From the IMG/VR virus record IMGVR_UViG_3300025364_000002: a DNA stretch of 64,000 bases; one strand, 5' to 3'. Both the position numbers and the translations under genes were made by a program. The stretch comes from a virus. Lineage: Duplodnaviria; Heunggongvirae; Uroviricota; Caudoviricetes. Position 1 is the first letter of the stretch. Every line of letters begins with the position of its first letter. The notes beneath the pieces were generated by a model that was given only the letters and a program-made list of their open reading frames with translations, was not told the DNA's origin and did no database searches. Positions 1,169 to 42,874 of the stretch are shown piece after piece.

Positions 1169-1215
1169 TATTAACTCCTTTGATTAGGAGTATTACACAT
1201 CCGAGCAAATGTATT

Positions 1216-1260
1216 TGGACCTTGTTGTCGGATTCGAACCTGTGACCCCCTGATCCCAAA
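1216..1260 (-). pseudogene. 3' half remnant of tRNA-Pro(TGG)
   Basis: TTTGGGA loop, GGTTCGAATCC and terminal CCA but no 5' half; directly after intact tRNA-Pro. Confidence 0.5.
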
Positions 1261-1265
1261 TTTAG

Positions 1266-1337
1266 TCGGAGTGGAGGGATTCGAACCCCCGACCGCCGGT
1301 TCCCAAAACCGGAGCGCTACCACTGCGCTACACTCCG
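1266..1337 (-). tRNA. tRNA-Pro(TGG)
   Basis: Full cloverleaf, loop TTTGGGA, C1-G72, ends A-CTA. Confidence 0.93.
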
Positions 1338-1401
1338 AATATCGGTCTAACTCACCACAATGATAAACTGTATGACAATTTTACCTGTAAGTATTACTAC
1401 T

Positions 1402-3309
1402 CTACACCGGATACTCTCGTATTTGAATAGATTTTGGCCACTCGACAGGATCATCACCTTTTTTACTGTTCAACTTCGACATGGTCAAGCCTGTCAATAT
1501 CGGCTTAGAACCGAGCTGTTTTACAAATACTTTAGTTGATGTACCATTGACGCATTTCACCACGTTGTCTGCCCAAATCCAATCAAAAGCTCGGGCTCCT
1601 GAACCGCTTTCCCCGCCCACAACAATCCAATCAAGGTCATTGACCCAAGGAGAAAAGTCAACGGGTGCTAAGGCTGGTTCGTAACTTGCCCAGCGTACTT
1701 TTGAAGTAGTTCTCAACAGAATTGGGATTCTTTTATCTGCTGTTGACTGGTCTTCACAAGACACTCCGAGCCAAACATTGTTCAGCGGCCACGTTTTGTC
1801 AACTTTATCAGTTTCTTTTCGACCGGTAAGCTTTCTAGCCTCATTGGCACAATATTCAGCTGGTGATGGGACTTGCAAGGCAACCCAATCAAACCAATCC
1901 TTTGCTCTTTCTGGTCTTTTTGTTAATACCTGAAAGGTATGCTTTTGTGCAGCTGCCATTACGCCAAAGACAGCAGCAATGTATTCATTAGCGACGCCAT
2001 GATGAAAGAGATCACTCATTGAATTAACGAACACCATTCTTGGCTTAGTCCAACGAATGGGGTCTGCAAGCTTGTCTGGTACAAGCATAATATTGCCATT
2101 CCACCTTGGACCCTTTTTGCCGACGGCAATTAACCCATGGTAAGGCTCTCCAGGCCCAGAAAACCTATGTGCGACCGTTTCCGCATAGCAATTATGCACA
2201 GCCATTCCTAATGCTATGAATGTACCAGAGGTGGTTTGTATATCTACCAAATTGCGTTTACCAATTCGTCTAATCCCATCAAATTTTATTGATTGTTTTG
2301 ATGGAAATCTTCGTCCATGAAAGTCAACCGTCTTTCTTTGTAATGCAGGTTGAATTGTAGATAAAAATTGAATTTTATCAGAAATGGTTCCCAGGAGTAT
2401 TTCACTTTTGTTTACTTGCGTAGAATATTGTTCATATTTGGATTTAAATCCCAAATCAGCAATTGCACGATGAGCAATGTTCAATAAATTGTTTTCTTTG
2501 GTCTGATTAAATCTTAGATTTTTGCCACTATAACATCCATCCATATCCAAAAAACCAGCAAGAAACCCAGCTTTCCAATTAAAGTCACTTTCTTCCCGTA
2601 TTATAATATTCCTAATTTTTAGGAGATTGTCCATAATCCGAGTTTCAATTTTCAACATGGGAAGGTTGGCTTCCCTGTAAAGAAATGCATCACCTCCATT
2701 AAAGGAGCGAATATTAATATTTTTACAGCCAAATTCGATCAATGCTTTTTTTAAGCGTTCAAGAATTGGTTTATCTGTTGCCAAAACTGCCACACGACAA
2801 TAAGATTGAAGAGTGCCATTTTTCCCAGAACCTTCAATTCTAATTGTGTCGTCGCCACCAACAACTCCAGCAATATATCCTGCCAAATAGGGTTTAGAAT
2901 TTATATCTGGCAACCACTTTGGAAACCCAATACTAGATATTTTTGTGTTTAAATTAATCTTTTCAGCTTTTCTCCAATATGGTCTATGTGGAGATAAAAA
3001 CAAATGGTCAACACTTGATACTATCGTATTAGAACCAAAATATAATTCTACCGCTTCTTTCCTGGTTTTCCAAGTTTTAACAACCGTAGCCTCTTCAAAA
3101 ACTCTATTTTGTCCAACTTTAGGATTGTCAGTAAAAGCAATAACTTTATCACCCTCTTTAATCTCGCCAATAGGCACCCAACTCATATCGGACATTAAAA
3201 CAGGCGTATCTGGGCCCAGGCAATTTTCGCAACCCTTGGAAACTCTAGAACAGCCTCTCAAAGGATTCCATGTGGCATCAGTCCACTGTATTCCGGTCTT
3301 GTTTCCCAT
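1402..3309 (-). CDS. DUF5131 / phage Gp37-Gp68 family protein (CX6CX2C motif) containing an intein
   Basis: WTDATWNPLRGCSRVSKGCEN|CYAE and MVFVNSMSDLFH, WLGVSCEDQ, WIVVGGESG motifs. Confidence 0.88.
   Translation of the reverse strand: MGNKTGIQWTDATWNPLRGCSRVSKGCENCLGPDTPVLMSDMSWVPIGEIKEGDKVIAFTDNPKVGQNRVFEEATVVKTWKTRKEAVELYFGSNTIVSSVDHLFLSPHRPYWRKAEKINLNTKISSIGFPKWLPDINSKPYLAGYIAGVVGGDDTIRIEGSGKNGTLQSYCRVAVLATDKPILERLKKALIEFGCKNINIRSFNGGDAFLYREANLPMLKIETRIMDNLLKIRNIIIREESDFNWKAGFLAGFLDMDGCYSGKNLRFNQTKENNLLNIAHRAIADLGFKSKYEQYSTQVNKSEILLGTISDKIQFLSTIQPALQRKTVDFHGRRFPSKQSIKFDGIRRIGKRNLVDIQTTSGTFIALGMAVHNCYAETVAHRFSGPGEPYHGLIAVGKKGPRWNGNIMLVPDKLADPIRWTKPRMVFVNSMSDLFHHGVANEYIAAVFGVMAAAQKHTFQVLTKRPERAKDWFDWVALQVPSPAEYCANEARKLTGRKETDKVDKTWPLNNVWLGVSCEDQSTADKRIPILLRTTSKVRWASYEPALAPVDFSPWVNDLDWIVVGGESGSGARAFDWIWADNVVKCVNGTSTKVFVKQLGSKPILTGLTMSKLNSKKGDDPVEWPKSIQIREYPV
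2191..3222 (-). mobile_element. intein with LAGLIDADG homing endonuclease (344 aa)
   Basis: Starts CLGPDTPV, ends AVHN before Cys+1; YLAGYIAGVVGGD and FLAGFLDMDG motifs. Confidence 0.92.
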
Positions 3310-3312
3310 TTA

Positions 3313-3537
3313 CTAATTCGTTCGACCAATTTGTCTATTGACCATAGACATCAACTGATTGTACACGCCTGGATCTGGCGGAAGAACCCAGTTTCCTTCT
3401 TCATCTACTCTCATACAGTTTTCTTCAAAAACTGACCAAACGTCACAGTAATAAACGTCGCCCATTTCGGTGCACATGTCTTCAGCAGTTTGAGCAAAAT
3501 CATTCACCAAAAAAACAAGCATGTGTTGCTTGAACAT
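3313..3537 (-). CDS. hypothetical protein
   Basis: 74-aa ORF packed in operon. Confidence 0.6.
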   Translation of the reverse strand: MFKQHMLVFLVNDFAQTAEDMCTEMGDVYYCDVWSVFEENCMRVDEEGNWVLPPDPGVYNQLMSMVNRQIGRTN

Positions 3538-3856
3538 AGCGCATTAAATGTGATGTTTGATGGTCTAATAAACTTAATCTGAAACCACGTTCAAGTTCTG
3601 TTGAATGCATTTGTTCCAGTCTCAACTGCTGAACGTCATTGAACTCTTCAGTTATTCTAATAATTTCTCTATTGTTTTCTTGAATCAATCTCACGGTCTC
3701 AATTTGACCTTCAGCCATTCTAAGTCGCATCGACAATTGATCAACTTGTTCAATGACATATAAACAAAAAAGACATAAAACCATCACTGCTGCTGCTACT
3801 AACGCAGTTCGCAACCCATCTTTACTGTTATTATAAAGCGATTTTAGGAAACTCAT
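3500..3856 (-). CDS. hypothetical membrane-anchored coiled-coil protein
   Basis: One hydrophobic segment followed by a heptad-like region. Confidence 0.6.
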   Translation of the reverse strand: MSFLKSLYNNSKDGLRTALVAAAVMVLCLFCLYVIEQVDQLSMRLRMAEGQIETVRLIQENNREIIRITEEFNDVQQLRLEQMHSTELERGFRLSLLDHQTSHLMRYVQATHACFFGE

Positions 3857-4125
3857 TATGCAAGTGTCTCAACTCTCTCATTAATGCTCAAAACTGCAAC
3901 TTCACAAGTTCCTTCACCAAAAACCTTTTCCCAGGATTTTTTTAGATCACGGGCTCTCTTTTTCACTTCCTTGCTGTCAGGGTCATCTGAATATAATACA
4001 AAGACACGCTTGGGGTCAAATACATATTCTACAGCAGGCGAGTAATTGTCAACAGATTCTCCGTTAACAGTAATCATTGATTCTGTGGTCATGCTAGGCA
4101 CTTGTGCTGAATTGTTTGAGTTCAT
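3856..4125 (-). CDS. hypothetical protein
   Basis: 89-aa ORF; start uncertain because it overlaps the GIY-YIG end. Confidence 0.55.
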   Translation of the reverse strand: MNSNNSAQVPSMTTESMITVNGESVDNYSPAVEYVFDPKRVFVLYSDDPDSKEVKKRARDLKKSWEKVFGEGTCEVAVLSINERVETLA

Positions 4126-4846
4126 TTCTTCTCTCCATTTTGTTTAAAATATAAGGTGTCCAACCTCTATATGTGTTACGTTTATTATTTGCCACTTGAT
4201 TCATCTTTGAAAGATGTAAGTTATTTTCTCTGCAAAATTTCGATAAATTTGTAATTGAAACTATTTCTCCATCAGGAGAAACAATCTTATAAGATTTTTG
4301 ATTTGATTTGATTGCTGCCAAGTTGGTAACTTTAGATGGTCTTTTGCCCCTATTTGCATTTTTTATTTTTTTTACATGTTCTTTTGATAGACTTCTTCCG
4401 GATAGTGCTTTAGATATATTGTTTTTATGTTGTTCTGATAGTAATCGACCTTTGAGTGAAGAAGAAATTTTTCTTTTAGTTTCCTCTGATACAACAGTTT
4501 TTCTTGAATTAAAACTTCCTTCACGTGAAATGGCTTTTTGTCGTAAATTATAGCATTTTTTTCCGGAATCAAAAAATTTATCTAAATATCGCTGTTCTAT
4601 TTCCAATCTCTTGTTCAAATCATTCACTTCTTGAAGAACTTCGAAAATAAAAAATTCTGATCCACATTTAGAAAAATCAGATTGAAGAAATCGATTGCCA
4701 TGCTTCCCCAAAAGAAGAGCATGTTTATGTTTATAGGCTCTTGTTTTAAAAGATTTACAAGAACCATAATAAACTCTATGGTTCTTACGGTTAAAAATTC
4801 TATAAACCCCACCTTTATTGGAACAACCGTTATATATTAACTTCAT
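4094..4846 (-). mobile_element. free-standing GIY-YIG homing endonuclease with NUMOD3-like repeats
   Basis: GGVYRIFN...VYYGS motif; SEETKRKISSSLKG and SEQHKNNIS repeats. Confidence 0.88.
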
Positions 4847-4882
4847 ATAAAAATTGTGGGTACTGCTGGTTATTTTGTCTAA

Positions 4883-5323
4883 CTATTCAATATTTATCCG
4901 CTTTAATTCAGCTCTGCGCTCCATGAGTAAAATTCCTAACCAATTCTTACCCTGACCTGTCTTATTGTCTACTCCCCAAAATTGATCATGCCACGTATTT
5001 CCCTCAATCAAAATGGCTGGTTCGGTAGCAATTAGCATTTCGGCAAAAATCGATCCTTCGGCAAACTTAAGTCTAAGTCCCTCTCTCATCACATGTATTT
5101 TTACAGATTCCCAATCCTTGCGCAAATCTAGAGATTTTCCAGCTCGCTTTGCAGCTCCTGGGGATTTAAGAGAGGCAATGCGCTTTCTTTCGCTGTGTGA
5201 GTTTGTCTTCATTGCTTGATAAAAGTGCTCATTTGTTGCATAGACAATTCCATCATGAATGAAGGGGCTTTCATAGAAATTTGAAAGAAAGCTAAAGTCA
5301 TCAGTAAAACTGTCGATTTTCAT
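4883..5323 (-). CDS. NADAR (YbiA-like) family protein
   Basis: FLSNFY, NEHFYQAMK, LIEGNTWHDQFWG motifs. Confidence 0.9.
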   Translation of the reverse strand: MKIDSFTDDFSFLSNFYESPFIHDGIVYATNEHFYQAMKTNSHSERKRIASLKSPGAAKRAGKSLDLRKDWESVKIHVMREGLRLKFAEGSIFAEMLIATEPAILIEGNTWHDQFWGVDNKTGQGKNWLGILLMERRAELKRINIE

Positions 5324-5643
5324 CTGACATTTGCCCTTCGTGTCTTATTCCGACGCCTTTTTTGTTTTGAAACCCAGGTTGTAAAGTTTACAACTTTTGG
5401 ATGTGTCATTAAAAGCTCTAGCGTATTGTATTCTTTGCCAAGATCCTTTTCGGTAATAAAGTCGTGAAGTGCTTCGTGGCAATCTTCACATATGTCTACA
5501 CCACGATTCAACTCTTCCTTTGAGTACCTTTTCTGATACCATTTCTTAGAATGAAGAGTTCGTGGAATCAGGTGATGAAAAGTAAGACATGTCTCTTCAC
5601 GAGAACACATCGGACAAGTTCCAATTTTATTGATTGTTACCAT
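5320..5643 (-). CDS. small HNH-domain protein
   Basis: CPMC...TFHHLIP...CEDCHEALH. Confidence 0.75.
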   Translation of the reverse strand: MVTINKIGTCPMCSREETCLTFHHLIPRTLHSKKWYQKRYSKEELNRGVDICEDCHEALHDFITEKDLGKEYNTLELLMTHPKVVNFTTWVSKQKRRRNKTRRANVR

Positions 5644-5872
5644 TGTTTTGATATAGAGATTCTATTCTATAAGAGGCAATTTTCATCCCAGAATGTTCAA
5701 CCAACCTCATAAAGATATGCAATGCATGGTTTTCATTTTCAGCATCGATTACAGCTTCGTGTGATTCTTCAGCACCTTTTGTATGTTGATCCTGTTTTAC
5801 TGCCCACCGATTTGAAATGTCAGTAAGTGGCCTAAAAATAATTTTATACTTCATCTTATCCCAAAGCGCCAA
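5627..5872 (-). CDS. hypothetical protein
   Basis: 81-aa ORF in operon. Confidence 0.55.
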   Translation of the reverse strand: MALWDKMKYKIIFRPLTDISNRWAVKQDQHTKGAEESHEAVIDAENENHALHIFMRLVEHSGMKIASYRIESLYQNNGNNQ

Positions 5873-5919
5873 ACGGCATTTTTAATAACTACATTCGAAC
5901 CTGTCTTTAGCTATTTTAG

Positions 5920-6039
5920 CTCCAGAGGAGGGATTCGAACCCCCGACTAATCAGCTATCTTTGAAACCATCGGATTCGCATTGCAACAAGCTTTATCCGA
6001 TTCCCACAACCGATCGCTCTACCATTGAGCTACTCTAGA
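5920..6039 (-). ncRNA. tRNA-Asn-like scaffold with ~47-nt insertion in the anticodon loop
   Basis: Perfect acceptor TCTAGAG/CTCTGGA, G73, normal D and T arms, stem ATCGG/CTGAT enclosing a hairpin insert. Confidence 0.8.
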
Positions 6040-6052
6040 ACGACCAGAATCA

Positions 6053-6117
6053 GCAGACCTGTGGAGTCTCCAATGACCTGGCCTAGTCGCATTCCTCAGT
6101 CCACAATAAAGGTCTGC
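6053..6117 (-). ncRNA. putative structured RNA
   Basis: Stems GCAGACCT/AGGTCTGC and GTGGA/TCCAC in intergenic DNA. Confidence 0.4.
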
Positions 6118-6158
6118 GAGTAGATTTTTACTTTAGAAAGAACAGACGCAAATGTTTG

Positions 6159-7565
6159 CTATAAACATGGATTAACAATAATATCTTCAAGTCTTTCAAC
6201 CATAACCGCTGGGTCTGTAGAAATTAGATGAAAGGTAGCACAATCATCAAAATCTGTGTTGTTAACTGATGCCCCAAAGACTGTCAATGATTCTCCGTGC
6301 GTAAACGAATTACACATTTCCATTTCACGTACTTCTGACAAACCTCTTGTAGAACTTCTATATGTTTGCCCTCTTTCATCAGTAAACATTATCATAATGC
6401 GAATTGAACCTTCCCGCCAAGATAAACCTCTTCTGGTGGGTGAGAGCATATCAGCTATACCATCACCATTTGAATCAATACCGTGTTCAATTTCACCAGT
6501 TGCGCTTTCATAAACTGCATCCCAAGTTGGCTCCTGTGCACCACCATCAGCATCCAAACTAGATAGCCTACTATTAAAGCTAGTGAAATCAGAAAAATCA
6601 AGTTCTACAAATGCTCTTCTGTCTAATGCGCCTCGGCCAGAAATAAGAACCAATGCAAACCTAAATTCGGGATTTCCTGCATACAGTGCTGAAAAAGTTG
6701 TTGTTGCTTCACGAACAGCTGCAATTGTAGAAGACATTGAACCAGAAATATCGATCAAATAAAGAATGTCAAAACCATTTGGTTCTATTGTTATACACAC
6801 CCCATCTTCATAAGCACCATCAATGCATCCATCACAATCATCGTCGACCCTATTACAGGCAAGCAAACCAACTTCTGGCACCGGCGGAATTTCACCATCG
6901 CATTCAGACCAAGTTCCTCCGGTTTCACAAACTTGACGTCCTTTTCGACAAGGTGAGATAATCGAATCTATATTAGGCCCAGAATAGCACCATTGTGATA
7001 AAGGCCCTGTGGAATCACTATTTTCATCTACCTCACCATCACAATCATTGTCAATGTCATCACAATCTTCTGGAACGCAATTTAAAAAAGTACAAGAGCC
7101 TTCAATGCATGCAAATCCTCTTGGACACATATCATCAAATTCACAAATATCTACACAATAGCCATTGCCTGTAATGGAATCAGTGATACATTCTTGCTCA
7201 CCAGAACTTTCTTCATTGTTGCAGTCTTGAGTATTTTCGCATTCAGTAAAACGATCTGATCTGACGCAAGAACCCATACGGCAGTCTGCACCTTCACCAC
7301 ATGGTGGCCCGTTACCACATCTGCAAGAGCCATCTATGCATTGGTCAGAATCCATAATCGGACAAAAATTTCCACAACCCCCGCAATTTCTGAAATCAGT
7401 TCTTAGTCTAGCAAGATCATCACTTTCACACGGGGGTCCAGCATCCGTGTCTGTTATAGACATCAATCCAGAATCAGAGAGTGGCGGTATTAGTGGTATT
7501 CCTTCTTGGTTGGAACACGCAAACAAACCAATGCAAAACACACTTAAAACCGCTACTTTTTTCAT
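6159..7565 (-). CDS. Cys-rich lipoprotein with myxobacterial-type repeats and a C-terminal vWA domain
   Basis: Lipobox LFAC, TDFRNCGGCGNFC, CDDIDNDCDGEVDE repeats, LIDISGSMS MIDAS motif. Confidence 0.8.
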   Translation of the reverse strand: MKKVAVLSVFCIGLFACSNQEGIPLIPPLSDSGLMSITDTDAGPPCESDDLARLRTDFRNCGGCGNFCPIMDSDQCIDGSCRCGNGPPCGEGADCRMGSCVRSDRFTECENTQDCNNEESSGEQECITDSITGNGYCVDICEFDDMCPRGFACIEGSCTFLNCVPEDCDDIDNDCDGEVDENSDSTGPLSQWCYSGPNIDSIISPCRKGRQVCETGGTWSECDGEIPPVPEVGLLACNRVDDDCDGCIDGAYEDGVCITIEPNGFDILYLIDISGSMSSTIAAVREATTTFSALYAGNPEFRFALVLISGRGALDRRAFVELDFSDFTSFNSRLSSLDADGGAQEPTWDAVYESATGEIEHGIDSNGDGIADMLSPTRRGLSWREGSIRIMIMFTDERGQTYRSSTRGLSEVREMEMCNSFTHGESLTVFGASVNNTDFDDCATFHLISTDPAVMVERLEDIIVNPCL

Positions 7566-7636
7566 GTAAGCTCCTGTTTATTACACCTTACCAGATAATC
7601 AATTCTAATTCAACAGAAAAAATTATTAAATAATCC

Positions 7637-8434
7637 TTACTCAAGATCCTCTGAGTTTCTCAGAGTTTGATTACGTTGTGTTAACACCTCACAACCTTCA
7701 TCTGTAACAAGAATGGTATGCTCAAATTGAGCTGAAAGACTGCCATCTAAAGTTAAAACCGTCCATCCATCTGATGCAATGAAGCATCCATCATTGCCCA
7801 TGTTTACAATGGGTTCAATTGTGAAAATCATGCCCGGCTTAAGAACTTCTCCGAGGCCAGGTGTCCCAAAATGAAAAATAGACGGTTTACTGTGAAATTC
7901 TCGACCCACTCCGTGCCCAACAAATTCTTTTACAACTTTAAAACCTTTAGAAGTAACATGCGTTTCAATCGCATGACCAATATGCCCAACAGTAATTCCA
8001 GGTTTTACAATCTCGATAGCCTTCTTGAGGCTTTCACGGGTCGTTTCAACAAGTAGCCTTGCCTCTTGAGAAGGCGTGCCAACATAAAACATAGCACTGC
8101 TATCACCATGAAATCCTCCATTTTTTGGAAAAAAAACGGAGACATCTACATTAATAATGTCACCATTTTCTAGTTTTTCTTTAGTGCTTGGTATTCCATG
8201 ACAAGCAACTTCGTTACGACTGGTACATACGCTCTTAGGGAAGCCCTTATAATTCAAGGGAGATGGATAAGCGCCATTACTTGTAATAAACTCATGCACC
8301 AAAACATTTATATCTTCTGTAGTGATCCCTGGTTGGATGTGTTCGCCAACCAAAACGAGAGTTTCTGCTGTTAATCGGCAAGACTCTCTCATTAATACCA
8401 TTTCTTCTTTGTTTAAAGGTAGCACATTACCCAC
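7637..8434 (-). CDS. map: methionine aminopeptidase type I
   Basis: SVCTSRNEVACHGIP, DVSV, GDSS, GHGVGREFH, TIEP, SAQFEHTILVT motifs. Confidence 0.96.
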   Translation of the reverse strand: MGNVLPLNKEEMVLMRESCRLTAETLVLVGEHIQPGITTEDINVLVHEFITSNGAYPSPLNYKGFPKSVCTSRNEVACHGIPSTKEKLENGDIINVDVSVFFPKNGGFHGDSSAMFYVGTPSQEARLLVETTRESLKKAIEIVKPGITVGHIGHAIETHVTSKGFKVVKEFVGHGVGREFHSKPSIFHFGTPGLGEVLKPGMIFTIEPIVNMGNDGCFIASDGWTVLTLDGSLSAQFEHTILVTDEGCEVLTQRNQTLRNSEDLE

Positions 8435-8584
8435 CGTGTGTTATTAACAATTTTAGACCAACTTTTCAGTGTCAAGGAAACACCTATAAGGTTACTTTAC
8501 TTTTAAGGTGTTGGTCAATATCACTCAAGTATCAACACTAGAGCAAATTATGTAAAGCCACCTAGGTGGCTTCATTGTTGCTTC

Positions 8585-8665
8585 ACAAAGAACTCGGATT
8601 CGAACCGAGAATACCTTTACAGGCGGCGCAAGTTGCGAAGTGTATACCATTTCCACCATTCTTTG
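8585..8665 (-). ncRNA. tRNA-Leu-like RNA with collapsed anticodon loop
   Basis: Leu-type D arm, long variable arm, perfect acceptor and T arms, anticodon arm CGCA-ACT-TGCG. Confidence 0.7.
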
Positions 8666-8681
8666 GAGAGGCAAACAAAGT

Positions 8682-8903
8682 CTAGGTCCAGACCAACTTA
8701 CCTTTCTTTCCATTGTGAAAAAGAGTCAAGCCTCCTTGGTCTCTAAAGCACCCATAGGACTGTCCACGAGAAGTCATAACAGCTTCGAAATGGATAAGGT
8801 ACAATCCATCTAGTACAAAAACCTCCCGCCCTTCTAGGGCGGCATCAAGCAATTGTTCAGCGAGACTTATGTCATACATTGCTTTTGTCGTTACCATATT
8901 CAT
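8682..8903 (-). CDS. hypothetical protein
   Basis: 73-aa ORF. Confidence 0.5.
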   Translation of the reverse strand: MNMVTTKAMYDISLAEQLLDAALEGREVFVLDGLYLIHFEAVMTSRGQSYGCFRDQGGLTLFHNGKKGKLVWT

Positions 8904-9189
8904 TTTTTCGAGCTTTCATCATTGTTTCGGTTTTAATTTGGGCAATAACCGTATCCAACTCATCTGCAAGTTTGCGTAGCTTTTCTGGTGTTATTTCCAC
9001 TCCACCCAGGTGGAACTTGGCTGCGTTGTGGTATGAATTCAATTCCAACTGCTGGGTGGTATTTAATCCCCTAAAAACACCATCGCCATTATCCCAAAAG
9101 TCAGTAACCAACGAAAAAGCTTCGCCGCCATTGTCTTTTTCATTAAAGGTAAATACATGACGAGCAAGATGTTTTTTATCAGAACTCAT
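8872..9189 (-). CDS. hypothetical protein
   Basis: 105-aa ORF in operon. Confidence 0.65.
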   Translation of the reverse strand: MSSDKKHLARHVFTFNEKDNGGEAFSLVTDFWDNGDGVFRGLNTTQQLELNSYHNAAKFHLGGVEITPEKLRKLADELDTVIAQIKTETMMKARKNEYGNDKSNV

Positions 9190-9393
9190 TTATTCATCCT
9201 TATCCTTGTAAATTCGATTTTTTATTGCAAATTGCGGGGTTAGCCAAAATCTTGAGTCTGGCTTTGTTGCTATTTTACTTTCATTTGGATGGTAAGCTCG
9301 GCCATGCAATGGTTGAAAGCAGGGTTTTTCACAATACACACAAGTTGTATTTCCGAAACTTTTTCCAATAGCCTTAGAACATAACTTTGTCAC
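9190..9393 (-). CDS. hypothetical protein
   Basis: 67-aa ORF with CxxC. Confidence 0.5.
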   Translation of the reverse strand: MTKLCSKAIGKSFGNTTCVYCEKPCFQPLHGRAYHPNESKIATKPDSRFWLTPQFAIKNRIYKDKDE

Positions 9394-9707
9394 AAATTTT
9401 CCTTTGCATGGGTTTCAAAGTATTCAATTACATGCCCGGTAACAACATTTCCATTTTCAGGGTTGATAGCCAAAGAAACGAGGTCTTCCATGTATTGCTC
9501 CGGAATGTAAAATTGAAAAATCGTATATGATTTCTTATTTTCTAGTTGATATGACCGAATTTCTTCTAGAAGATCATTGATATTTTTTCTAGGAACAGCA
9601 AACCAAATTTTGGTTTGATCAAATTCAACTATCAATTGGTCAGATGGATCAATCGCATAAGGAAATTCAAAATCTTCACTAAATGTTGCAGACCAAAACT
9701 TTTGCAT
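9390..9707 (-). CDS. hypothetical protein
   Basis: 105-aa ORF with RBS GGGAGA. Confidence 0.65.
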   Translation of the reverse strand: MQKFWSATFSEDFEFPYAIDPSDQLIVEFDQTKIWFAVPRKNINDLLEEIRSYQLENKKSYTIFQFYIPEQYMEDLVSLAINPENGNVVTGHVIEYFETHAKENL

Positions 9708-9722
9708 AATATTTCTCCCGAG

Positions 9723-9794
9723 TGGGTTGCCTGGGATTCAAACCCAGAACCAACATTTTAAGAGACTGTTGCACTACCATTGTAGTGACCACCC
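9723..9794 (-). tRNA. tRNA-Lys(CTT), slightly degenerate
   Basis: Loop CTCTTAA; one mismatch each in acceptor and anticodon stems; T loop TTTGAAT. Confidence 0.7.
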
Positions 9795-9825
9795 AAAAAG
9801 CAACGGTCCTATTATAGGACCGTTG
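9795..9825 (-). terminator. intrinsic terminator-like hairpin
   Basis: CAACGGTCCT-ATAAT-AGGACCGTTG followed by CTTTTT. Confidence 0.55.
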
Positions 9826-10034
9826 GGTTAAAATAATAACTTTAAAAATAAACTAAGTGCGGATTCAATAATATAATAATAAACTTGGGATTTCTCGTCT
9901 TGCCGGCCATAACGCCCCGCACGGCGAATTTTCGGGTTAGCAACGATACTATCCTGCGTCTACAAAACAAAGTTTGCAGATATTTCTACGTTACCATATG
10001 TGTTCGGGTTTATAAACTCGGTTTGGTTTTGGTT

Positions 10035-10104
10035 TGACCCTGGGATTCGAACCCTCAGTCTCCCGATGTTATGTCGGGCGTTCTACCGTTGAACTAAACG
10101 GGTC
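10035..10104 (-). pseudogene. degenerate tRNA
   Basis: Intact D arm and CCCGA/TCGGG stem, loop CATAACA lacks U33, deletion in the 3' T stem/acceptor. Confidence 0.6.
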
Positions 10105-10121
10105 AAAACTTGAGCTAAGTT

Positions 10122-10196
10122 TGGAGCGGGTAGGGGGAATCGAACCCCTCGTCATCTGGTTGGAAGCCAGAAGCTCTACCATTGAGCTATACCCGC
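10122..10196 (-). tRNA. tRNA-Gly(TCC)
   Basis: Canonical cloverleaf, encoded CCA. Confidence 0.95.
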
Positions 10197-10197
10197 A

Positions 10198-10383
10198 TTA
10201 AATCAGTATCGTTAAATACTTTGCGTTGTCTTTGTCTATTTGACTTTTGTGAAAAAGTATTAGCTTTTCTTCATACAGAAAAGAATATGACTCAATAACT
10301 TTTTTAAGTGATTTTGACACTACTGTCTCATAGTAATGAATTCCAACATACACTAACAATGACTCATCTGGAATGGAAATCAT
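10198..10383 (-). CDS. hypothetical protein
   Basis: 61-aa ORF. Confidence 0.4.
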   Translation of the reverse strand: MISIPDESLLVYVGIHYYETVVSKSLKKVIESYSFLYEEKLILFHKSQIDKDNAKYLTILI

Positions 10384-10531
10384 CCCGAATCATAACCTTC
10401 ACTGCTGACTTCATCATTATTATTTCTGGGGATTTGAACGGAAGTATCACGAGCCAGAAATGGCGACAAACTGTCATTAGATTTTCTAGAGGTTTTTCGT
10501 TCTAGATGATATACCTTGCCGGGAATTAGTT

Positions 10532-10942
10532 TTACCACGTATTCCATCCGCAAGTTCCCATCTCTTTTTCAAAATCATCCCAGCGATTTTGTTTTAACAA
10601 GTCTCTTTCTTTTGCACGCCGACGGCGACGGTCAAACTTTTTCCAAGATTTACTTTCTTTTGAATACTGAGATTTACGAAATTTTTTTACGTAACGTTTT
10701 TCTACTGCAACCTTGGTATTACTAAACATTTCCATTTTCCACCGTTCAAAAATGGAAGGTTTGATAATAGTAAAACCCCAATAAGGATTGAAAACCACAG
10801 GACGTCGATAAACTATATCAATATGCGTGCGAGTATCAAAGTAATATTGTCTTCCTTCAGAATCGAATGCGGCCCAACCAATACCATCACGAACTTTTAA
10901 ACCTTTTGGAACAGCGTGACGATTTCTCCATGTTTTAGACAT
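10532..10942 (-). CDS. hypothetical basic protein
   Basis: 136-aa ORF with RBS GAGGAG, Arg/Lys-rich C-terminus. Confidence 0.7.
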   Translation of the reverse strand: MSKTWRNRHAVPKGLKVRDGIGWAAFDSEGRQYYFDTRTHIDIVYRRPVVFNPYWGFTIIKPSIFERWKMEMFSNTKVAVEKRYVKKFRKSQYSKESKSWKKFDRRRRRAKERDLLKQNRWDDFEKEMGTCGWNTW

Positions 10943-10958
10943 ATATTCTCCTCAAAAC

Positions 10959-11360
10959 CTAACGGTTATAAGAAGAGATAAAAATTGTGTTTGCTTCATT
11001 TTCTGTTTTATAGAAACAAATATTGCTAAGCTGAAACCTAGAAATGTAAACAATCTTTTCTTTATGGGAAAATCTTAAATAAATTCCATTGCCTGCTCTA
11101 TTCGTATATCCCGCAGCATCGCCGCAATACAATACAATGTCCTTGTTTGGGATGCTCACGATATTACTTTTGAGTTGATCAACTGCTTCTTGTAAAGAAC
11201 CTTTATGCACATTCCATAGAGGTGCAAATGAATCGCTATTCCAAGCTAAGACACAATCATTCAGTAAGGATTCTACCCTGTAAAGGGTACCCAATGTAAG
11301 TTTATTTTGATAACTTTTACTATTTACTGTAAACTTGTTCAACAATCTATCATGCTCCAA
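10959..11360 (-). CDS. hypothetical protein
   Basis: 133-aa ORF. Confidence 0.6.
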   Translation of the reverse strand: MEHDRLLNKFTVNSKSYQNKLTLGTLYRVESLLNDCVLAWNSDSFAPLWNVHKGSLQEAVDQLKSNIVSIPNKDIVLYCGDAAGYTNRAGNGIYLRFSHKEKIVYISRFQLSNICFYKTENEANTIFISSYNR

Positions 11361-11441
11361 ACCATCATTGTCTTATAAGATTAGAGTGGTAGCACCAAGG
11401 CATTAAATCAAGCCCTGAAAGCTCAATGAGCGAGTTAAAAC

Positions 11442-11747
11442 TCATTGACCTCGGTTTGAAACAAGTTTACCAAATATAGCATTTTTTGAAATCCAACCAT
11501 TAATGAACCCACGATTATTGGATATTTGAAACCTTTCGCCTTGGATTGCACTTATAAGATGCAGATACTGCTTTCCTTTAACTTTGCAAAGAACGATATC
11601 GCCCTTGTCGAATTCAGTTTTTTCTGAAATAGGTTCAACGACTACAAGGTCACCAGACTCAATCAACGGCTTCATCGAGCTGCCCCTAGGTCGGAATTCT
11701 ACTGTTTCACCGCTTTTGAGCTTCTTTATGTATTCTGTGGCCCACAT
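11442..11747 (-). CDS. S24/S26 peptidase-like protein
   Basis: RGSSMKPLIESGDLVVV and KGDIVL...YLH motifs. Confidence 0.75.
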   Translation of the reverse strand: MWATEYIKKLKSGETVEFRPRGSSMKPLIESGDLVVVEPISEKTEFDKGDIVLCKVKGKQYLHLISAIQGERFQISNNRGFINGWISKNAIFGKLVSNRGQ

Positions 11748-12064
11748 TGTTCTTCAACCTTATTAACAAACTCTTCCCATTCTTCATCGGTAAATTTATC
11801 ACCAATTGACTCAAGTGTTTTTCTAAGCCGTGCTTTGACTTCTTTCTCCCAAAGCTCTTCAAATGGTTCACGTTCGCCTAACAAAAAATCATCAACCTCA
11901 TAAAGTTTAACCTTGTATACAGATGAAGCATTGTCATAATATTCTTGTGCTTCTTCTAGAGAAGAAAAGGTACGCTGTCGATAACATTCTTCATAACTTG
12001 TTCCATCATCCCCATAATGGCTTAGCCATTTTTCTACTCGATAATATGTTCTATTTTTGCTCAT
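11726..12064 (-). CDS. hypothetical protein
   Basis: 112-aa ORF in operon. Confidence 0.65.
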   Translation of the reverse strand: MSKNRTYYRVEKWLSHYGDDGTSYEECYRQRTFSSLEEAQEYYDNASSVYKVKLYEVDDFLLGEREPFEELWEKEVKARLRKTLESIGDKFTDEEWEEFVNKVEEQCGPQNT

Positions 12065-37583: not shown

Positions 37584-37658
37584 TGGTAGCGGGTGAGGGA
37601 TTCGAACCCCCGTCTCTTGGTTATGAGCCAAGCGAGATGACCACTTCTCCAACCCGCA
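37584..37658 (-). tRNA. initiator-like tRNA-Met(CAT)
   Basis: 1:72 mismatch, GAGA/TCTC D stem, CCA; only two G-C pairs closing the anticodon stem. Confidence 0.88.
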
Positions 37659-37663
37659 ACAAA

Positions 37664-37777
37664 AAACTTATCGAACCGCCAACCTTACCCTTCATGGGTA
37701 CATGACTGCTGGTCTCCACACCAGGGAGCCTAGTTGTGGAGAACTAGGCTCTCGTTCCTTAGCTGCTTTAAGGCAGC
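37664..37777 (-). ncRNA. kissing-loop ncRNA family, copy 1
   Basis: Adjacent hairpins with complementary loops CTCCAC/GTGGAG; shared AACGA, CAGTC and TTGRCGGTT motifs. Confidence 0.75.
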
Positions 37778-37783
37778 AAATAT

Positions 37784-37872
37784 TGGTAGCCAGGGCGAGA
37801 TTCGAACTCGCACTCCATTTTACTGGAACTGGATCCTTAGTCCAGCGGGTCTGCCAATTCCCCCACCTGGCC
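37784..37872 (-). tRNA. tRNA-Leu(AAG)
   Basis: Class II, loop CTAAGGA, CCA. Confidence 0.9.
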
Positions 37873-37877
37873 ATATG

Positions 37878-38034
37878 AGGCTACCCCGATTTAGGGCGAT
37901 TTAATCTGGATTCAAGTCCAGAACCTCCAAAAACTTTCATAACTTGTCTGGTGTTTGACGCACCAGGGCGTCAGTGTGGATATTGATACCCGCTTCACGC
38001 CATCAGCCTTTCGGCTTCCAATATTCGTTATGAT
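37878..38034 (-). ncRNA. putative pseudoknotted RNA
   Basis: TCATAAC/GTTATGA closure, GAAA hairpin, TGACG complementary to loop CGTCA. Confidence 0.5.
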
Positions 38035-38050
38035 TAGTGACCTCGACGGG
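38035..38050 (-). pseudogene. 3' tip remnant of a Glu-type tRNA
   Basis: CCCGT-CGAGGTC-A-CTA immediately after the HNH stop codon. Confidence 0.6.
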
Positions 38051-38464
38051 TCATCTATATTGTTTTCTTTTCCAAGTTCGTAACCTATGACAATTAGAAC
38101 AGACTAATTCACATTTTTTAATTTCTTCCAAAAGTCGTTTTTGAGAGAAACCATTTACAATCCCATCTGACAATTCGAAACTTTTATTGCCAAGATGATC
38201 AAAGTCCATGCAAACAGGATGGTATGTTTTTTCACAATCAACACAAGGTGATTTTTTTATCTCCCACAAAAAATCCTTATTAAGTTTTTTTCGTTTGCGA
38301 TCATAAGCCTTTTCTTTCTTTTGATTATTTCTATAATAATCAACTCTTGCTTTCGCAGCACAAACTTTACAGTAGGCTTGTAAACCTTTTTTACCAGATT
38401 TGTACGTTCTTGAATGAAAGGCTTTATTAGATTTTTCTATCTTACATTTTATACATGTTTTCAT
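38051..38464 (-). mobile_element. HNH homing endonuclease
   Basis: CIKC...YCKVC, PCVDC...MDFDH...CELVCSNCHRLRT. Confidence 0.9.
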
Positions 38465-38469
38465 AATAA

Positions 38470-38541
38470 TGACCCTACGGAGACTCGAACTCCGATCACG
38501 AGATTGAAAGACTCGTATCCTTGCCGTTAGACGATAGGGCC
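38470..38541 (-). tRNA. tRNA-Glu(TTC)
   Basis: Loop CTTTCAA. Confidence 0.92.
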
Positions 38542-38588
38542 AAAGGGAAATCCTTATTCAGTTTTCAAGGAAGAAACTTAGTATATCA

Positions 38589-38660
38589 TCGTCCGAACAG
38601 GGATTGAACCTGTGACCTCTTCCGTGTCAAGGAAGCGCTCTCCCACTGAGCTACCGGACG
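38589..38660 (-). tRNA. tRNA-Val(GAC)
   Basis: Canonical. Confidence 0.93.
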
Positions 38661-38841
38661 GATTGTAAATATTGTTTTGCTCTTTCTAAAATCTCCACAG
38701 AATCCCTGAAAAGACCTAATCCAGTATTACAACTACTGTAACGCTTGAAACTCCTGTTTGCAACTTTGACAAATCTTCGTTTCTTTTTTCTCTGTATCTC
38801 ATGGTGTTAACAGTTTATCATGAGATAAAAAGACTGTTTAG

Positions 38842-38914
38842 TTGGCCCACTGGGAATCGAACCCAGATCTCAGCTTTATCAGAGCTGCGTGCTAAACCGC
38901 TCTACTATGGGCCA
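38842..38914 (-). tRNA. tRNA-Ile(GAT)
   Basis: Loop CTGATAA. Confidence 0.9.
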
Positions 38915-38970
38915 ATAGTTTCATCAGACGGAGGGTGTACTGCCCAATATTTTTAACTATGTTATTTTGT

Positions 38971-39246
38971 TTACTTTTTGTCTAAATCTTCGATATCTTC
39001 AGGATACACATTTCCGTTTTCATCTCTCATGGGCTGATATTCTTCCCAACCCATAATTTCGTTTCTTTTCTGGGCTGCTTCCAGCCTGGTTTTTGCATTA
39101 TATTCAGCAATCAGCTGAACCTTTTCTTTGAAAAATCCAAGACGGTATGCAATCGATTCTAGCCGATTTCTACGGCACTCGAAACTGTCTTTGGGTGATA
39201 GACTAATGCTGCCATCATATTCATTTTCCCAGATTTGAAACAACAT
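38971..39246 (-). CDS. hypothetical protein
   Basis: Start at MLFQIW, downstream of tRNA-Lys. Confidence 0.7.
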   Translation of the reverse strand: MLFQIWENEYDGSISLSPKDSFECRRNRLESIAYRLGFFKEKVQLIAEYNAKTRLEAAQKRNEIMGWEEYQPMRDENGNVYPEDIEDLDKK

Positions 39247-39257
39247 TGGTTTTCTCT

Positions 39258-39332
39258 TGGTGGGGCGCCTGGGAATCGAACCCAGCTCATTCGGCTTAAA
39301 AGGCCGTTGCATCGCCTTGATGCTAACACCCC
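39258..39332 (-). tRNA. tRNA-Lys(TTT)
   Basis: Canonical, CCA. Confidence 0.94.
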
Positions 39333-39350
39333 AAATTTACATAGTTTATT

Positions 39351-39510
39351 TGGTGGAGCTTATTGAAGCTGTCGCCACCGGAATATTACATCCGAAACGT
39401 ATTGCCCGGCGTCGCTTGTTCGGCGTCGGGGCGCCCGCCATTCCCTGCGAATCTCTTATTCTACCCTAGGTCGGCGCCAGTTTCAACCTCGTTTCCAGTT
39501 GAAACCTATT
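39351..39510 (-). ncRNA. GC-rich structured RNA ending in CCACCA
   Basis: GTTTCAAC/GTTGAAAC, GGCGCC/GGCGCC and CCGG stems; 3' AGCTT-CAAT-AAGCT-CCACCA. Confidence 0.55.
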
Positions 39511-39544
39511 GCGTCTCAAAATGTAACGAAGAAATTTAAAAGAC

Positions 39545-39766
39545 TCAGACAGTAGTTGCTGTCATTGCAGTCTGCATAGAATACTTCAGGCATTCAAGCT
39601 GAATGAGCGTCTTTTCAAGAACAACACCTGTGAGGCGCTCATCGCCATCCGTGCATTCCAATACAAAACTATGAACTTCACCTACGGTGAGTCGCCCATC
39701 TCGAATGGCAATTGCGAATCCCTTGACGAGATCATCAGCAGTATTAATTTGAAAGTTGCTGTACAT
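39545..39766 (-). CDS. hypothetical protein
   Basis: RBS AAGGAGG, 73 aa. Confidence 0.7.
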   Translation of the reverse strand: MYSNFQINTADDLVKGFAIAIRDGRLTVGEVHSFVLECTDGDERLTGVVLEKTLIQLECLKYSMQTAMTATTV

Positions 39767-39843
39767 GTTTCCTCCTTAGGGATTTCTAAGGCTAAGGAAG
39801 GATAACATCCCAGGGTTTGAGAGTAAACCTTATTTCAAATTTC

Positions 39844-40134
39844 TTACCAGCCTGCTGCCTTGAGTTTGGCCTGTACTGCTTGCTTGATAAGTTCTTTTTG
39901 CTGAGGATCTTTTTCACCCTTCATTGCTGCAAGAAGCTGATCAAGATTCATATTTGCATTCAACCAAGGATTTTGGCCTGCTTTTGCAGCCTGGGCACGG
40001 CCTGGAGTGCCTCCGGGCTTAAAACCACTGCGCTGCTGTCCAGCTCCTGGTAAACCAGAAATTTGTTCATCAATTTGCTCACGTACGGCCTCACGGACCA
40101 TTTCTTTAAGCTGTTTAAAGGTAAGTTTTGCCAT
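39844..40134 (-). CDS. hypothetical protein (probable late/virion-associated)
   Basis: LTFKQLKEMVREAVRE leader typical of huge-phage proteins. Confidence 0.7.
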   Translation of the reverse strand: MAKLTFKQLKEMVREAVREQIDEQISGLPGAGQQRSGFKPGGTPGRAQAAKAGQNPWLNANMNLDQLLAAMKGEKDPQQKELIKQAVQAKLKAAGW

Positions 40135-40213
40135 TGTGTTTACTCCGATTGCAGTAATCTGCCTGTGAGTAAATAGTTGTCTTTAGGCATTATTCTTTTC
40201 TTAGAAAAAATTT

Positions 40214-40257
40214 TGGTCGTTCCGGGAAGAATCGAACTTCCATATTCGCTTTATCAG
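40214..40257 (-). pseudogene. 3' half of tRNA-Ile(GAT)
   Basis: CTGATAA-AGCGA-ATAT-GGAAG-TTCGATT-CTTCC-CGGAACG-A-CCA. Confidence 0.8.
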
Positions 40258-40802
40258 TCAACCAATCCAAGTTGGCGTAGTTTCTTCTTTACAGCAACGT
40301 CAGACACACCGACAATTTTGGCTATTTCTGTATAGGTCATCTTGTTTTTTACAGCTAAACTCAAATCAACCTTTTCCCATTTACCTTTGATTTTAGTTTT
40401 GCCAACACAAGCCTGCGAACAATATTTTCGCAAATCAGATTTCAATTTACCACAATGTTTACAAGGTGTTAGATTTATATGTTTTTCTTTGCGATATTTC
40501 TCAAAAGAAAAATCAAATCTAACAATATCTTTTGGGATTGTTGTGATTTCGTCATGAACTTCACGATGACAATTTGCACAAAGTAAAACACATTTTTTTG
40601 CTTCTTTTACTAGTTTTTCCCATCGTGCTACCTTGTTCCATTTTGAAAATGTGAAATCTTTTTCATCTTTATTTAGATGATGGAATTCTAAAGCTTTTAG
40701 TGTTTTACTGTATCCACATATTCCGCATTTACTTCCAAAAGCCTCTTTGAGACGTTTAATGGTGCGTTCACGCCATGCTTTTACATACTTGTATTCTGCC
40801 AT
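40254..40802 (-). mobile_element. HNH homing endonuclease inserted in tRNA-Ile
   Basis: CGICGY...LEFHHL...CVLLCANCHREVH; stop codon lies in the anticodon loop. Confidence 0.9.
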
Positions 40803-40856
40803 CGTCTAACCTCAATGCATAACTATATCATAGTTGGATATAAATCTATAGAGGTT

Positions 40857-40887
40857 CGATGCCCTTAGGCCATTAGACGACGGAACG
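40857..40887 (-). pseudogene. 5' half of tRNA-Ile(GAT)
   Basis: CGTTCCG is complementary to the 3' half acceptor CGGAACG; D arm and TCG follow. Confidence 0.75.
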
Positions 40888-40902
40888 ATATGCCGGATCA
40901 AT

Positions 40903-40978
40903 ACAACAACAGTTGGATTCGAACCAACAACCTGGACTTTCATAGAGCCCCGCTCTACCATTGCAGCTATGTGTTGTA
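40903..40978 (-). tRNA. atypical tRNA, anticodon ATG
   Basis: Loop CTATGAA, good T arm, bulged acceptor. Confidence 0.55.
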
Positions 40979-40988
40979 AAGGCGACAT

Positions 40989-41063
40989 TGGTCGGTCGCC
41001 TGGGAATCGAACCCAGCTCTGATGGATTAAGAGTCCAGTGCATCGCCTTGATGCTAACGACCG
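40989..41063 (-). tRNA. tRNA-Lys(CTT)
   Basis: Canonical, CCA. Confidence 0.92.
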
Positions 41064-41158
41064 AAACGAAAGTTCACTCATGAGAAGTCATGGAATCCTG
41101 GCAGTGAACATTTCCAAAGTAAGCACTCTAGCCATTTTGATTCATTCGAGTTACTTAG

Positions 41159-41231
41159 TGGAGAATAAGGGATTCGAACCCTTGACTCCGGTGTGCAAGA
41201 CCGGTGTGTTCCCAATTAGCACCAATTCCCC
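41159..41231 (-). tRNA. tRNA-Ala(TGC)
   Basis: G3-U70, canonical. Confidence 0.94.
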
Positions 41232-41233
41232 AA

Positions 41234-41427
41234 AAAACTTGCAACCGTCAAGCCATGCCCCCAGGGGGACCGCCAGACTGCCTCTCTGCCAAGAGGGAAC
41301 TTGATGGTGGCAGCCATCTTGTTTCGTTGCTTGAATTTGCATCGTCTCTCCGACGTGTCAAGTCTAGTGCTCGGGAGTCCTTCAAAGTTTGAAGGGTCCT
41401 TTGCTGGGACGTACCGACTTTCGAACC
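41234..41427 (-). ncRNA. kissing-loop ncRNA family, copy 2 (with 5' extension)
   Basis: Complementary loops CTGCCA/TGGCAG and the same conserved motifs as copy 1. Confidence 0.75.
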
Positions 41428-41503
41428 TGGCGGGACCGACGAGATTTGAACTCGCACCCTCTCCCGTGACAGGGGAGCGCACTGCCAATTATGCTACGGC
41501 CCC
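41428..41503 (-). tRNA. tRNA-Asp(GTC)
   Basis: Canonical, CCA. Confidence 0.95.
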
Positions 41504-42559: not shown

Positions 42560-42874
42560 TCAGGCTTCAGTTTTTGTCAATTGACGTTGAGCATGCTCTC
42601 CCGAGCCTTCAATTGCTGTTCCAGAACCCGATTCGCTTTCAGCATCAATCCATTCAATTACAGTCTTTCCACCATGTCCATGAATGTGGATCATTTCCAC
42701 TGTACTATGGTAAATACCAATACTCCGAGTATCAGTAAGCCAACTAATGACACACTGTCCGTCGGAGAACTTGATACCTTCGGCTACATAACCAGTGCCC
42801 GAAACACCACTCTCATCTTCATTACGCTTGAGGCGAAATCGACGAAGTTCTACTTTCCTTTTAGGTTCAGCCAT
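42560..42874 (-). CDS. conserved hypothetical protein
   Basis: RRFRLKRNEDESGVSGTGYVAEG..FSDG motif; RBS AGGAG. Confidence 0.75.
   Translation of the reverse strand: MAEPKRKVELRRFRLKRNEDESGVSGTGYVAEGIKFSDGQCVISWLTDTRSIGIYHSTVEMIHIHGHGGKTVIEWIDAESESGSGTAIEGSGEHAQRQLTKTEA

Follow-up and report, generated by a model that had tools for sequence, protein, structure and literature searches.

What are the two small structured elements that lie between tRNA genes on a 64,000-nucleotide stretch of Caudoviricetes virus DNA (IMG/VR record IMGVR_UViG_3300025364_000002), and how do the complementary loops of their hairpins come together? The whole of this stretch, at its full length, is referred to here as the window. 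An earlier note, made from the letters of the window alone, had proposed a new family of noncoding RNA in two copies, with covarying kissing loops, inside the tRNA array. Comparative sequence analysis indicates that both elements belong to a real, selected and uncatalogued small RNA family with a well-supported loop-loop helix, and the geometry of this helix suggests that the loops may pair between molecules.

The conserved unit spans about 100 nt and is present twice in the window, at 37760-37661 and 41332-41232, in both cases on the minus strand, which is also the strand of the tRNAs. Read in this direction, the two spacers display the common order described in the earlier note: AAG-(G/C)AAC-GA, hairpin A (PA), hairpin B (PB), CAGUC, a third hairpin, UUG(G/A)CGGUU and the 3' strand of the outer helix (P1). 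The GUC of CAGUC pairs with the GRC of UUGRCGG, thereby closing an arm (PC), and the fold is thus a compact four-way junction, P1 -GA- PA -C- PB -CA- PC -G- P1, whose joiners GA, C, CA and G are invariant. Loops A and B, which had been described as complementary within each copy and different between copies, form six of six Watson-Crick pairs in each of them (CUCCAC/GUGGAG in copy 1 and CUGCCA/UGGCAG in copy 2). The reported covariation of the outer helix was likewise read from the sequence (GAAC/GUUC versus GCAAC/GUUGC), and hairpin B of copy 2 has 5 bp (CCUCU/AGAGG), not 4 bp.

Orthologues of copy 2 were found in two related huge-phage lineages (L242 and L249), one in each and both in the spacer between tRNA-Asp and tRNA-Ala. 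The description as a two-copy family, correct for the window, was therefore too narrow. The orthologues keep the invariant joiners and a PA-linker-PB geometry of 10/6/10 + 1 + 5/6/5 nt, which is identical in both window copies and in all four sequences, unlike P1 (4-7 bp) and PC, which vary among the four. P1 is followed by AAGUUUUUU, which reaches the next tRNA, and a U-run downstream of P1 is conserved. The next tRNA begins 9-15 nt past P1 in three of the four sequences, the three close copies, and about 55 nt past it in L242. The parts of the two window copies, their immediate neighbours and the two orthologues are as follows.

37661-37760, minus strand: copy 1, whole element, 100 nt, read from the sequence; family covariance model R1, 44.2 bits, E 4.5e-11.
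37784-37872 and 37584-37658: neighbours of copy 1, tRNA-Leu(AAG) and tRNA-Met, with the element between them.
37754-37757, minus strand: copy 1, 5' strand of P1, GAAC, pairing with GUUC at 37673-37676; this helix is 100% paired in the four sequences.
37726-37751, minus strand: copy 1, hairpin PA, a perfect 10-bp stem with the 6-nt loop CUCCAC at 37736-37741.
37709-37724, minus strand: copy 1, hairpin PB, 5 bp (CUGGU/ACCAG) with the 6-nt loop GUGGAG at 37714-37719, the exact complement of loop A.
37678-37708, minus strand: copy 1, CA joiner and arm PC, closed by GUC(A)/(U)GGC, with the inner hairpin UACCC-AUGAA-GGGUA.
37661-37677, minus strand: copy 1, joiner G, 3' strand of P1 (GUUC) and tail GAUAAGUUUUUU, which stops 2 nt short of tRNA-Met.
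41232-41332, minus strand: copy 2, whole element, 101 nt; model R1, 113.8 bits; orthologues lie in the same Asp-to-Ala spacer.
41158-41231 and 41428-41503: neighbours of copy 2, tRNA-Ala(UGC), which the element abuts, and tRNA-Asp upstream.
41298-41323, minus strand: copy 2, hairpin PA, 10 positions with a 2x2 A.A internal loop and the 6-nt loop CUGCCA at 41308-41313.
41281-41296, minus strand: copy 2, hairpin PB (CCUCU/AGAGG) with the loop UGGCAG at 41286-41291, the complement of loop A.
41247-41280, minus strand: copy 2, CA joiner and arm PC, closed by GUC/GAC.
41232-41246, minus strand: copy 2, joiner G, 3' strand of P1 (GUUGC, pairing with GCAAC at 41326-41330) and tail AAGUUUUUU, which directly meets tRNA-Ala.
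41333-41427, minus strand: lineage-specific filler that precedes copy 2 and lies outside the family; a remnant of the T-arm and acceptor 3'-half of a tRNA-Asp, then two unrelated hairpins.
L242, 1727-1830: orthologue in the Asp-to-Ala spacer.
L249, 11308-11408: orthologue in the Asp-to-Ala spacer, which is 104 nt long and nearly exactly filled by the element.

Covariance model R1 was trained on copy 2 and the two orthologues, which align without gaps (alignment A4); MAFFT misplaced copy 1, so the model was used to place it. Covariation was measured on a four-row alignment (A6) of copy 1, copy 2, L242 and L249. Copy 1, although not in the training set, was recovered at 44.2 bits (E 4.5e-11), and nothing besides the two copies was found in the window. 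With filters off, scores on the minus strand were 113.8 and 44.1 bits, compared with 10 bits on the plus strand. Standard pairs occupied 92.5% of the pair cells versus 70.3% in shuffles, none of 500 shuffles reaching the observed value, and changes on both sides, that is, compensatory changes, were found in 20 of the 34 pairs. When partners were slid as a control, pairing fell to 32-46%. RNAalifold independently gave the same four helices and the same four-way junction, which was also obtained in the single-sequence minimum free energy (MFE) folds of L242 and L249.

The loop-loop helix was left out of the model, and its pairing was thus not imposed on the alignment. All of its 24 cells were nevertheless paired, with compensatory double changes at three of the six pairs, a result reached by 2 of 500 shuffles. 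One of these cases is seen in L242, whose loops CUGCUA/UAGCAG represent a compensatory double change relative to those of copy 2; overall, four or more independent compensatory changes can be discerned. The pattern CAGTC..TTGRCGGTT occurs twice in the window versus 0.04 occurrences expected, and a scan of adjacent hairpins across 2.28 Mb of unrelated viral loci detected no other pair in which the 6-nt loops were complementary at 6/6 positions, each stem had 5 bp or more and the linker did not exceed 2 nt. A chance origin of the pattern is ruled out. The covariation seen across the four sequences, in the stems as well as in the loop-loop pairing, supports the four-way junction and the six Watson-Crick loop-loop pairs, and it bears out the proposal that this is a selected, structured RNA family.

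The element was compared with catalogued RNAs using Rfam 15, whose 4227 models include hammerhead I/II/III, HDV-like, twister, twister-sister, pistol, hatchet, hairpin and VS ribozymes, as well as purine, lysine, cobalamin, pRNA, manA, ROOL and GOLLD RNAs. At gathering thresholds, only tRNAs were matched in the window, and in a 5.5-kb scan at E<=10 no match overlapped 37661-37760 or 41232-41332, in agreement with the earlier failure to recognise a known riboswitch or ribozyme. The one exception was a chance hit to a Tymo_tRNA-like model (15.7 bits, E 8.7) sitting on tRNA-Ala.

Several individual candidates were rejected on structural grounds as well. Hammerhead ribozymes are built on a three-way junction, with the cleavage triplet NUH beside stem I; in addition to the negative Rfam result, the junction found here is four-way and the core CUGANGA...GAAA is absent from all four sequences. 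A hairpin ribozyme was discarded because the GUC is paired and not in an internal loop. In the case of HDV-like and theta ribozymes, also negative in Rfam, the supported pairs form a kiss between hairpins on a four-way junction, with no P1/P2 crossing. Theta ribozymes, which are minimal HDV-like ribozymes found directly beside tRNA genes in phage genomes (PMC10879173), have a nested double pseudoknot (P1/P1.1/P2/P3), whereas the element has kissing hairpins on a four-way junction. A tRNA-like structure or RNase P substrate mimic was rejected because PC has no T-loop, a sigma-70 promoter in TTGRCG because there is no -10 box, and an intrinsic terminator because P1 is weak and a spacer precedes the U-run. 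A riboswitch of any class was set aside because both copies lie between tRNA genes, with no open reading frame (ORF) downstream and no expression platform, for which there is no place since the tRNA gene begins 9-15 nt past P1 in the three close copies.

Among known systems, the phi29-family pRNA (RF00044) is alike in being a phage RNA of about 120 nt organised around a helical junction, with two mutually complementary loops that covary. The loops of phi29 pRNA pair between molecules ("hand in hand"), pairing within one molecule being sterically blocked. Of this behaviour, the element displays the loop covariation, and a steric exclusion of the contact in cis can be argued from its 1-nt linker and fully paired 6-nt loops. 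However, the junction of pRNA is three-way, its loops pair over 4 nt, its gene adjoins the packaging genes of small phi29-like podoviruses, and the RNA docks on the portal, whereas the element has a four-way junction and 6-nt loops and belongs to the tRNA array of a huge phage. No evidence points to homology, and phi29 pRNA was rejected as an identification given the four-way junction, the position of the element in the tRNA array, 15 kb from the T4-type terminase gene, and the lack of an RF00044 match.

Structured non-tRNA RNAs have been known in phage tRNA clusters since the description of rnaC and rnaD in T4 (species 1 and 2), which resemble the element in being small, stable RNAs inside a tRNA cluster and in being released with the tRNAs. 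They differ in their predicted folds and in having no complementary loop pair; model R1, run over the T4 tRNA region with filters off, scored 7 bits at best (E 0.31). Similarly, when the model was run with filters off over positions 1-12000 of the crAss-like Cellulophaga phage phi14:2 (NC_021806), the best score was 10 bits (E 0.19) and fell outside the intergenic ncRNA region. Among the RNAs of phage tRNA clusters, the present family ranks, on computational grounds, with the clearest examples of a loop-loop helix that covaries.

ROOL and GOLLD often adjoin tRNAs in phages. Together with OLE, these RNAs are natural RNA-only homo-oligomers (PMC12286853), and the manA motif, an RNA of less than 200 nt, forms cages via intermolecular kissing loops, a filament of a 57-nt RNA having also been described (bioRxiv 10.64898/2026.07.01.735769). 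For ROOL, GOLLD and manA, assembly through kissing loops of separate molecules has recently been revealed by cryo-electron microscopy, and such RNAs set a precedent for loops at first taken to pair within a molecule that proved to pair between molecules. All of them have other folds, most are far larger, and none matches the element, for which assembly is only deduced. The purine riboswitch and the L2-L3 kiss of the lysine riboswitch are alike in that an outer helix closes neighbouring hairpins with touching loops. In both, the contact is made within one molecule and needs long joiners (purine J2/3) or a turn (lysine P2), as well as loops with unpaired nucleotides. The element, in contrast, has a 1-nt linker, fully paired loops and no expression platform.

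How the loops meet can be considered from the position and dimensions of the element. On the minus strand no terminator-like site flanks either copy, and the element would be co-transcribed with the tRNAs. Judging from position, RNase P acting at the downstream tRNA would set its 3' end (...AAGUUUUUU-3'OH), and tRNA 3'-end processing upstream would set its 5' end. Such processing would release an RNA of about 100-110 nt, with its ends closed by P1 and terminating in a U6 tail. When a pair of 6-nt loops is base-paired from end to end, as in kissing complexes of the TAR-TAR* type, the resulting helix is stacked between the two stems. A coaxial arrangement of PA (10), kiss (6) and PB (5) would amount to 21 bp and place the bases of the two stems about 59 Å apart. 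Given the 1-nt linker between PA and PB and the pairing of the loops over their full length, a kiss in cis would be sterically implausible, and we infer that pairing takes place between molecules. In copy 1, moreover, PA is a perfect 10-bp stem with no hinge. Invariant lengths of PA, PB and the loops, together with variable P1 and PC, are what an intermolecular constraint predicts. The earlier interpretation of the kissing loops as a tertiary fold within a single molecule is thus supported as regards loop covariation, but a contact in cis is doubtful.

Self-association of the RNA through its loops would be the most likely mechanism, although on this idealised geometry our judgement is evenly balanced. 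Two arrangements can be envisaged. In a symmetric head-to-head homodimer, two parallel composite helices of 21 bp (PA+kiss+PB' and PB+kiss+PA') would run between two junctions. In a head-to-tail filament, PA would be stacked on PB with a repeat of 21-22 bp, close to two A-form turns; the 22-bp repeat (10+1+5+6) would result from pairing between the invariant joiners C and G. Between the two paralogues, the loops are different at precisely the three positions that vary and are unable to pair across copies, so that each paralogue would assemble only with itself. An assembly of this kind could serve as a scaffold, or as a decoy for a tRNA-directed or RNA-binding protein, for which the conserved 3' U-tail may be a handle. 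The complete picture, a minimal self-assembling RNA from a tRNA operon that acts as scaffold or decoy, forms a dimer or a filament and gives rise to orthogonal assemblies of its paralogues, is put forward more tentatively, as a model that we would not expect to hold in all its parts.

The main alternative is that the loops kiss in cis and lock the four-way junction into a compact tertiary fold, which would act as a ligand aptamer or a protein-binding decoy. Covariation of the loops is equally expected for a contact in cis, the invariant GA, C, CA and G joiners and the pairs flanking them look like a binding or structural core, and contacts between the loops of neighbouring hairpins are familiar from purine and lysine riboswitches. 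We nevertheless consider this fold unlikely, since the 1-nt linker and the fully paired 6-nt loops would leave no slack for stems of 10 and 5 bp to lie side by side, and since PA of copy 1 offers no hinge; for its riboswitch version, neither an expression platform nor a match to the Rfam riboswitch models was found. An improbable reading is that the RNA is a conformational or processing signal, in which loops A and B would form an alternative, nested helix once the stems are opened, timing RNase processing or causing pausing or termination at the U-run. The MFE fold of copy 1 does use UCUCCACA/UGUGGAGA as an ordinary 8-bp helix, and the U-run past P1 is conserved. However, the 8-bp extension and its inner hairpin are found only in copy 1, and not in copy 2, L242 or L249, whereas hairpins PA and PB themselves covary strongly. 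Furthermore, in three of the four sequences the U-run lies 3-6 nt from a weak P1 of 4-5 bp, unlike an intrinsic terminator, and a terminator scan of the minus strand detected none.

Two further functions were considered. The earlier note had favoured either a ribozyme that processes the polycistron or a ligand or protein-binding aptamer; no positive evidence for a processing ribozyme or a ligand aptamer was found, given the lack of a known ribozyme core and of an expression platform. A new class of self-cleaving ribozyme cutting the tRNA polycistron, with the conserved junction (for example CA|GUC) as active site, would explain why junction nucleotides are invariant and stems freely variable, as in small ribozymes, and CAGUC resembles the cleavage context of the hairpin ribozyme. 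Theta/HDV-like ribozymes also provide a precedent beside phage tRNAs (PMC10879173). We regard this class as very improbable, because none of the eight ribozyme types listed above was matched at E<=10, neither the HDV double-pseudoknot topology nor the hammerhead core CUGANGA/GAAA is present, and in each of the four sequences the GUC pairs with GRC. In addition, the element occupies one or two of about 50 spacers and is missing from related phages, so it is not needed for processing of the array, and tRNA-processing enzymes would already define both of its ends. Least plausible of all, and close to negligible in our view, is a display of anticodon or codon, or a trans-acting small RNA, in which a tRNA or mRNA would be the partner of one loop and the other loop would act as its mask. 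The 3' U6 tail resembles the end of an Hfq-type small RNA, and loop A in the copy-2 lineage includes UGC, the anticodon of the downstream tRNA-Ala. Yet any 6-mer contains four triplets, the loops of copy 1 are unrelated to its neighbours tRNA-Leu and tRNA-Met, and no target was identified.

Several observations weigh against self-association and, more generally, against too firm a reading of the family. The argument for pairing in trans rather than in cis rests on idealised A-form helices and on kissing geometry of the TAR-TAR* kind, and PA has an internal loop of 2-3 nt in three of the four sequences, which could add flexibility. Since the three lineages compared supply no more than four distinct sequences, the covariation counts are small, although consistent, and kinship can inflate the shuffle controls. 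Thermodynamic z-scores of single sequences are unremarkable (-0.39 for L249 and -0.54 for the copy-2 spacer). Finally, a search of RNA sequencing runs for the element listed none, one metatranscriptome run matching tRNA-Ala only.

A single-molecule fold does not easily accommodate the strict geometry of the element, with its 10- and 5-bp stems, its 1-nt linker and its 6-nt loops paired in full. Should the loops pair between molecules, the family would be a case of a natural RNA of very small size whose sequence specifies its own quaternary structure, with a bearing on the recent finding of homo-oligomeric phage-associated RNAs. If the contact is made in cis, the family would represent a new fold, a compact four-way junction whose core is invariant, with a possible ligand or protein partner.

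A narrow clade of huge phages (about 0.46 Mb) from saline and other metagenomes carries these uncatalogued, structured RNA genes of about 100 nt as cassettes between tRNA genes. Relatives were reached via synteny, a 96-aa protein inside the array leading to L242 and an Acb5-like protein leading to many related tRNA arrays. The element was not found in the tRNA arrays of lineages L253, L254-256 and L257-L263 or of IMG/VR loci L264-L280; contig L282 stops before its tRNA array. The Asp-to-Ala spacer has only 16 nt in L253, and the Leu-to-Met site of copy 1 corresponds to a 10-nt spacer in L249. Such short, empty spacers in relatives indicate that the element behaves as a cassette gained or lost precisely between tRNAs, and only one or two of the roughly 50 spacers of an array carry it.

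Searches beyond these lineages gave negative results. In IMG/VR, the patterns GCAGTC..TTGRCGGTT and AACGA..CAGTC..TTGRCGG yielded random matches only and two stricter patterns yielded none, while a strict pattern gave two random matches in JGI metagenome contigs and one in GTDB genomes. The terminase, used as protein bait, retrieved fragments without the motif, and a neighbouring protein of 288 aa retrieved nothing in IMG/VR. A blastn search of GenBank phages with the spacer region and copy 2 returned tRNAs or noise only. As a separate observation, a 174-nt spacer past tRNA-Leu(AAG) in L254 (14158-14331), a lineage without the element, contains GCAGCAGTTATG...AATGACGGC. It is faintly similar to the 3' half of copy 1, gives no match to the covariance model, and could be a decayed or an unrelated RNA.

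The limits of the family could also be adjusted. The ranges first proposed (37664-37777 and 41234-41427) both correspond to spacers that hold the element, but the second includes about 95 nt outside the family. This segment (41333-41427) is lineage-specific: at this place no more than 3-6 nt are present in the orthologous spacers of L249 and L242, and the model match begins at 41332. Within it, directly past the intact tRNA-Asp, positions 41405-41427 (minus strand) hold what is left of the 3' half of a second tRNA-Asp, GGTTCGAAAGTCGGTACGTCCCA, compared with GGTTCGAATCCCGTACGTCCCG in L249 and L242. Since related phages have two tandem tRNA-Asp genes at this place, one of these copies has decayed in the lineage of the window. 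Between tRNA-Leu and copy 1, a hairpin GCUGC-CUUAAA-GCAGC was observed at 37762-37777 (minus strand); it also falls outside the family, given that the model match begins at 37760.

The window, which belongs to the genome of a huge phage, encodes a T4-type terminase, a class II aminoacyl-tRNA synthetase, an asparagine synthase and a CCA-adding enzyme. It contains 52 tRNA genes, nearly all of them on the minus strand, and the same DNA was also found on contigs of up to 461 kb and in hypersaline-lake metagenomes. The tRNA-Ala(UGC) region (41155-41235) matches a portion of a 211-nt marine-sediment metatranscriptome contig at 100% identity over 81 nt, the flanking sequences being unrelated, so this tRNA-Ala sequence also occurs in another organism or phage. 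A tRNA gene at 40214-40887 (minus strand) is interrupted by an insert of about 600 nt with a 182-aa Cys-rich ORF (40254-40802), and a second, similar Cys-rich ORF lies at 38051-38464. Both had earlier been described as HNH-like cassettes in or beside tRNAs; the 182-aa ORF has no Pfam match at the default threshold.

The Acb5-like protein (PF26761) is encoded on the minus strand at 42563-42874, just upstream of the tRNA array and 1.2 kb upstream of the element. It is kept at 45-87% identity on many huge-phage contigs, with further occurrences in Streptomyces phages of about 130 kb, in Bacillus phages and in Haloarcula viruses, and it can serve as a useful synteny anchor for phage tRNA arrays. 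In a related huge phage, an RNase P protein homologue (PF00825) is encoded inside the tRNA array, beside an SNase-like gene (L249, 14640-14927; same place in L250 and L251); none was seen at the corresponding place in the window. In L249, L253, L254, L258 and L263, the region upstream of the Acb5-like gene encodes a release-factor-like protein with PCRF/RF-1 domains, a fragment of a HisRS-like class II synthetase and a CCA-adding enzyme, which points to a clade with a broad set of translation-related genes.

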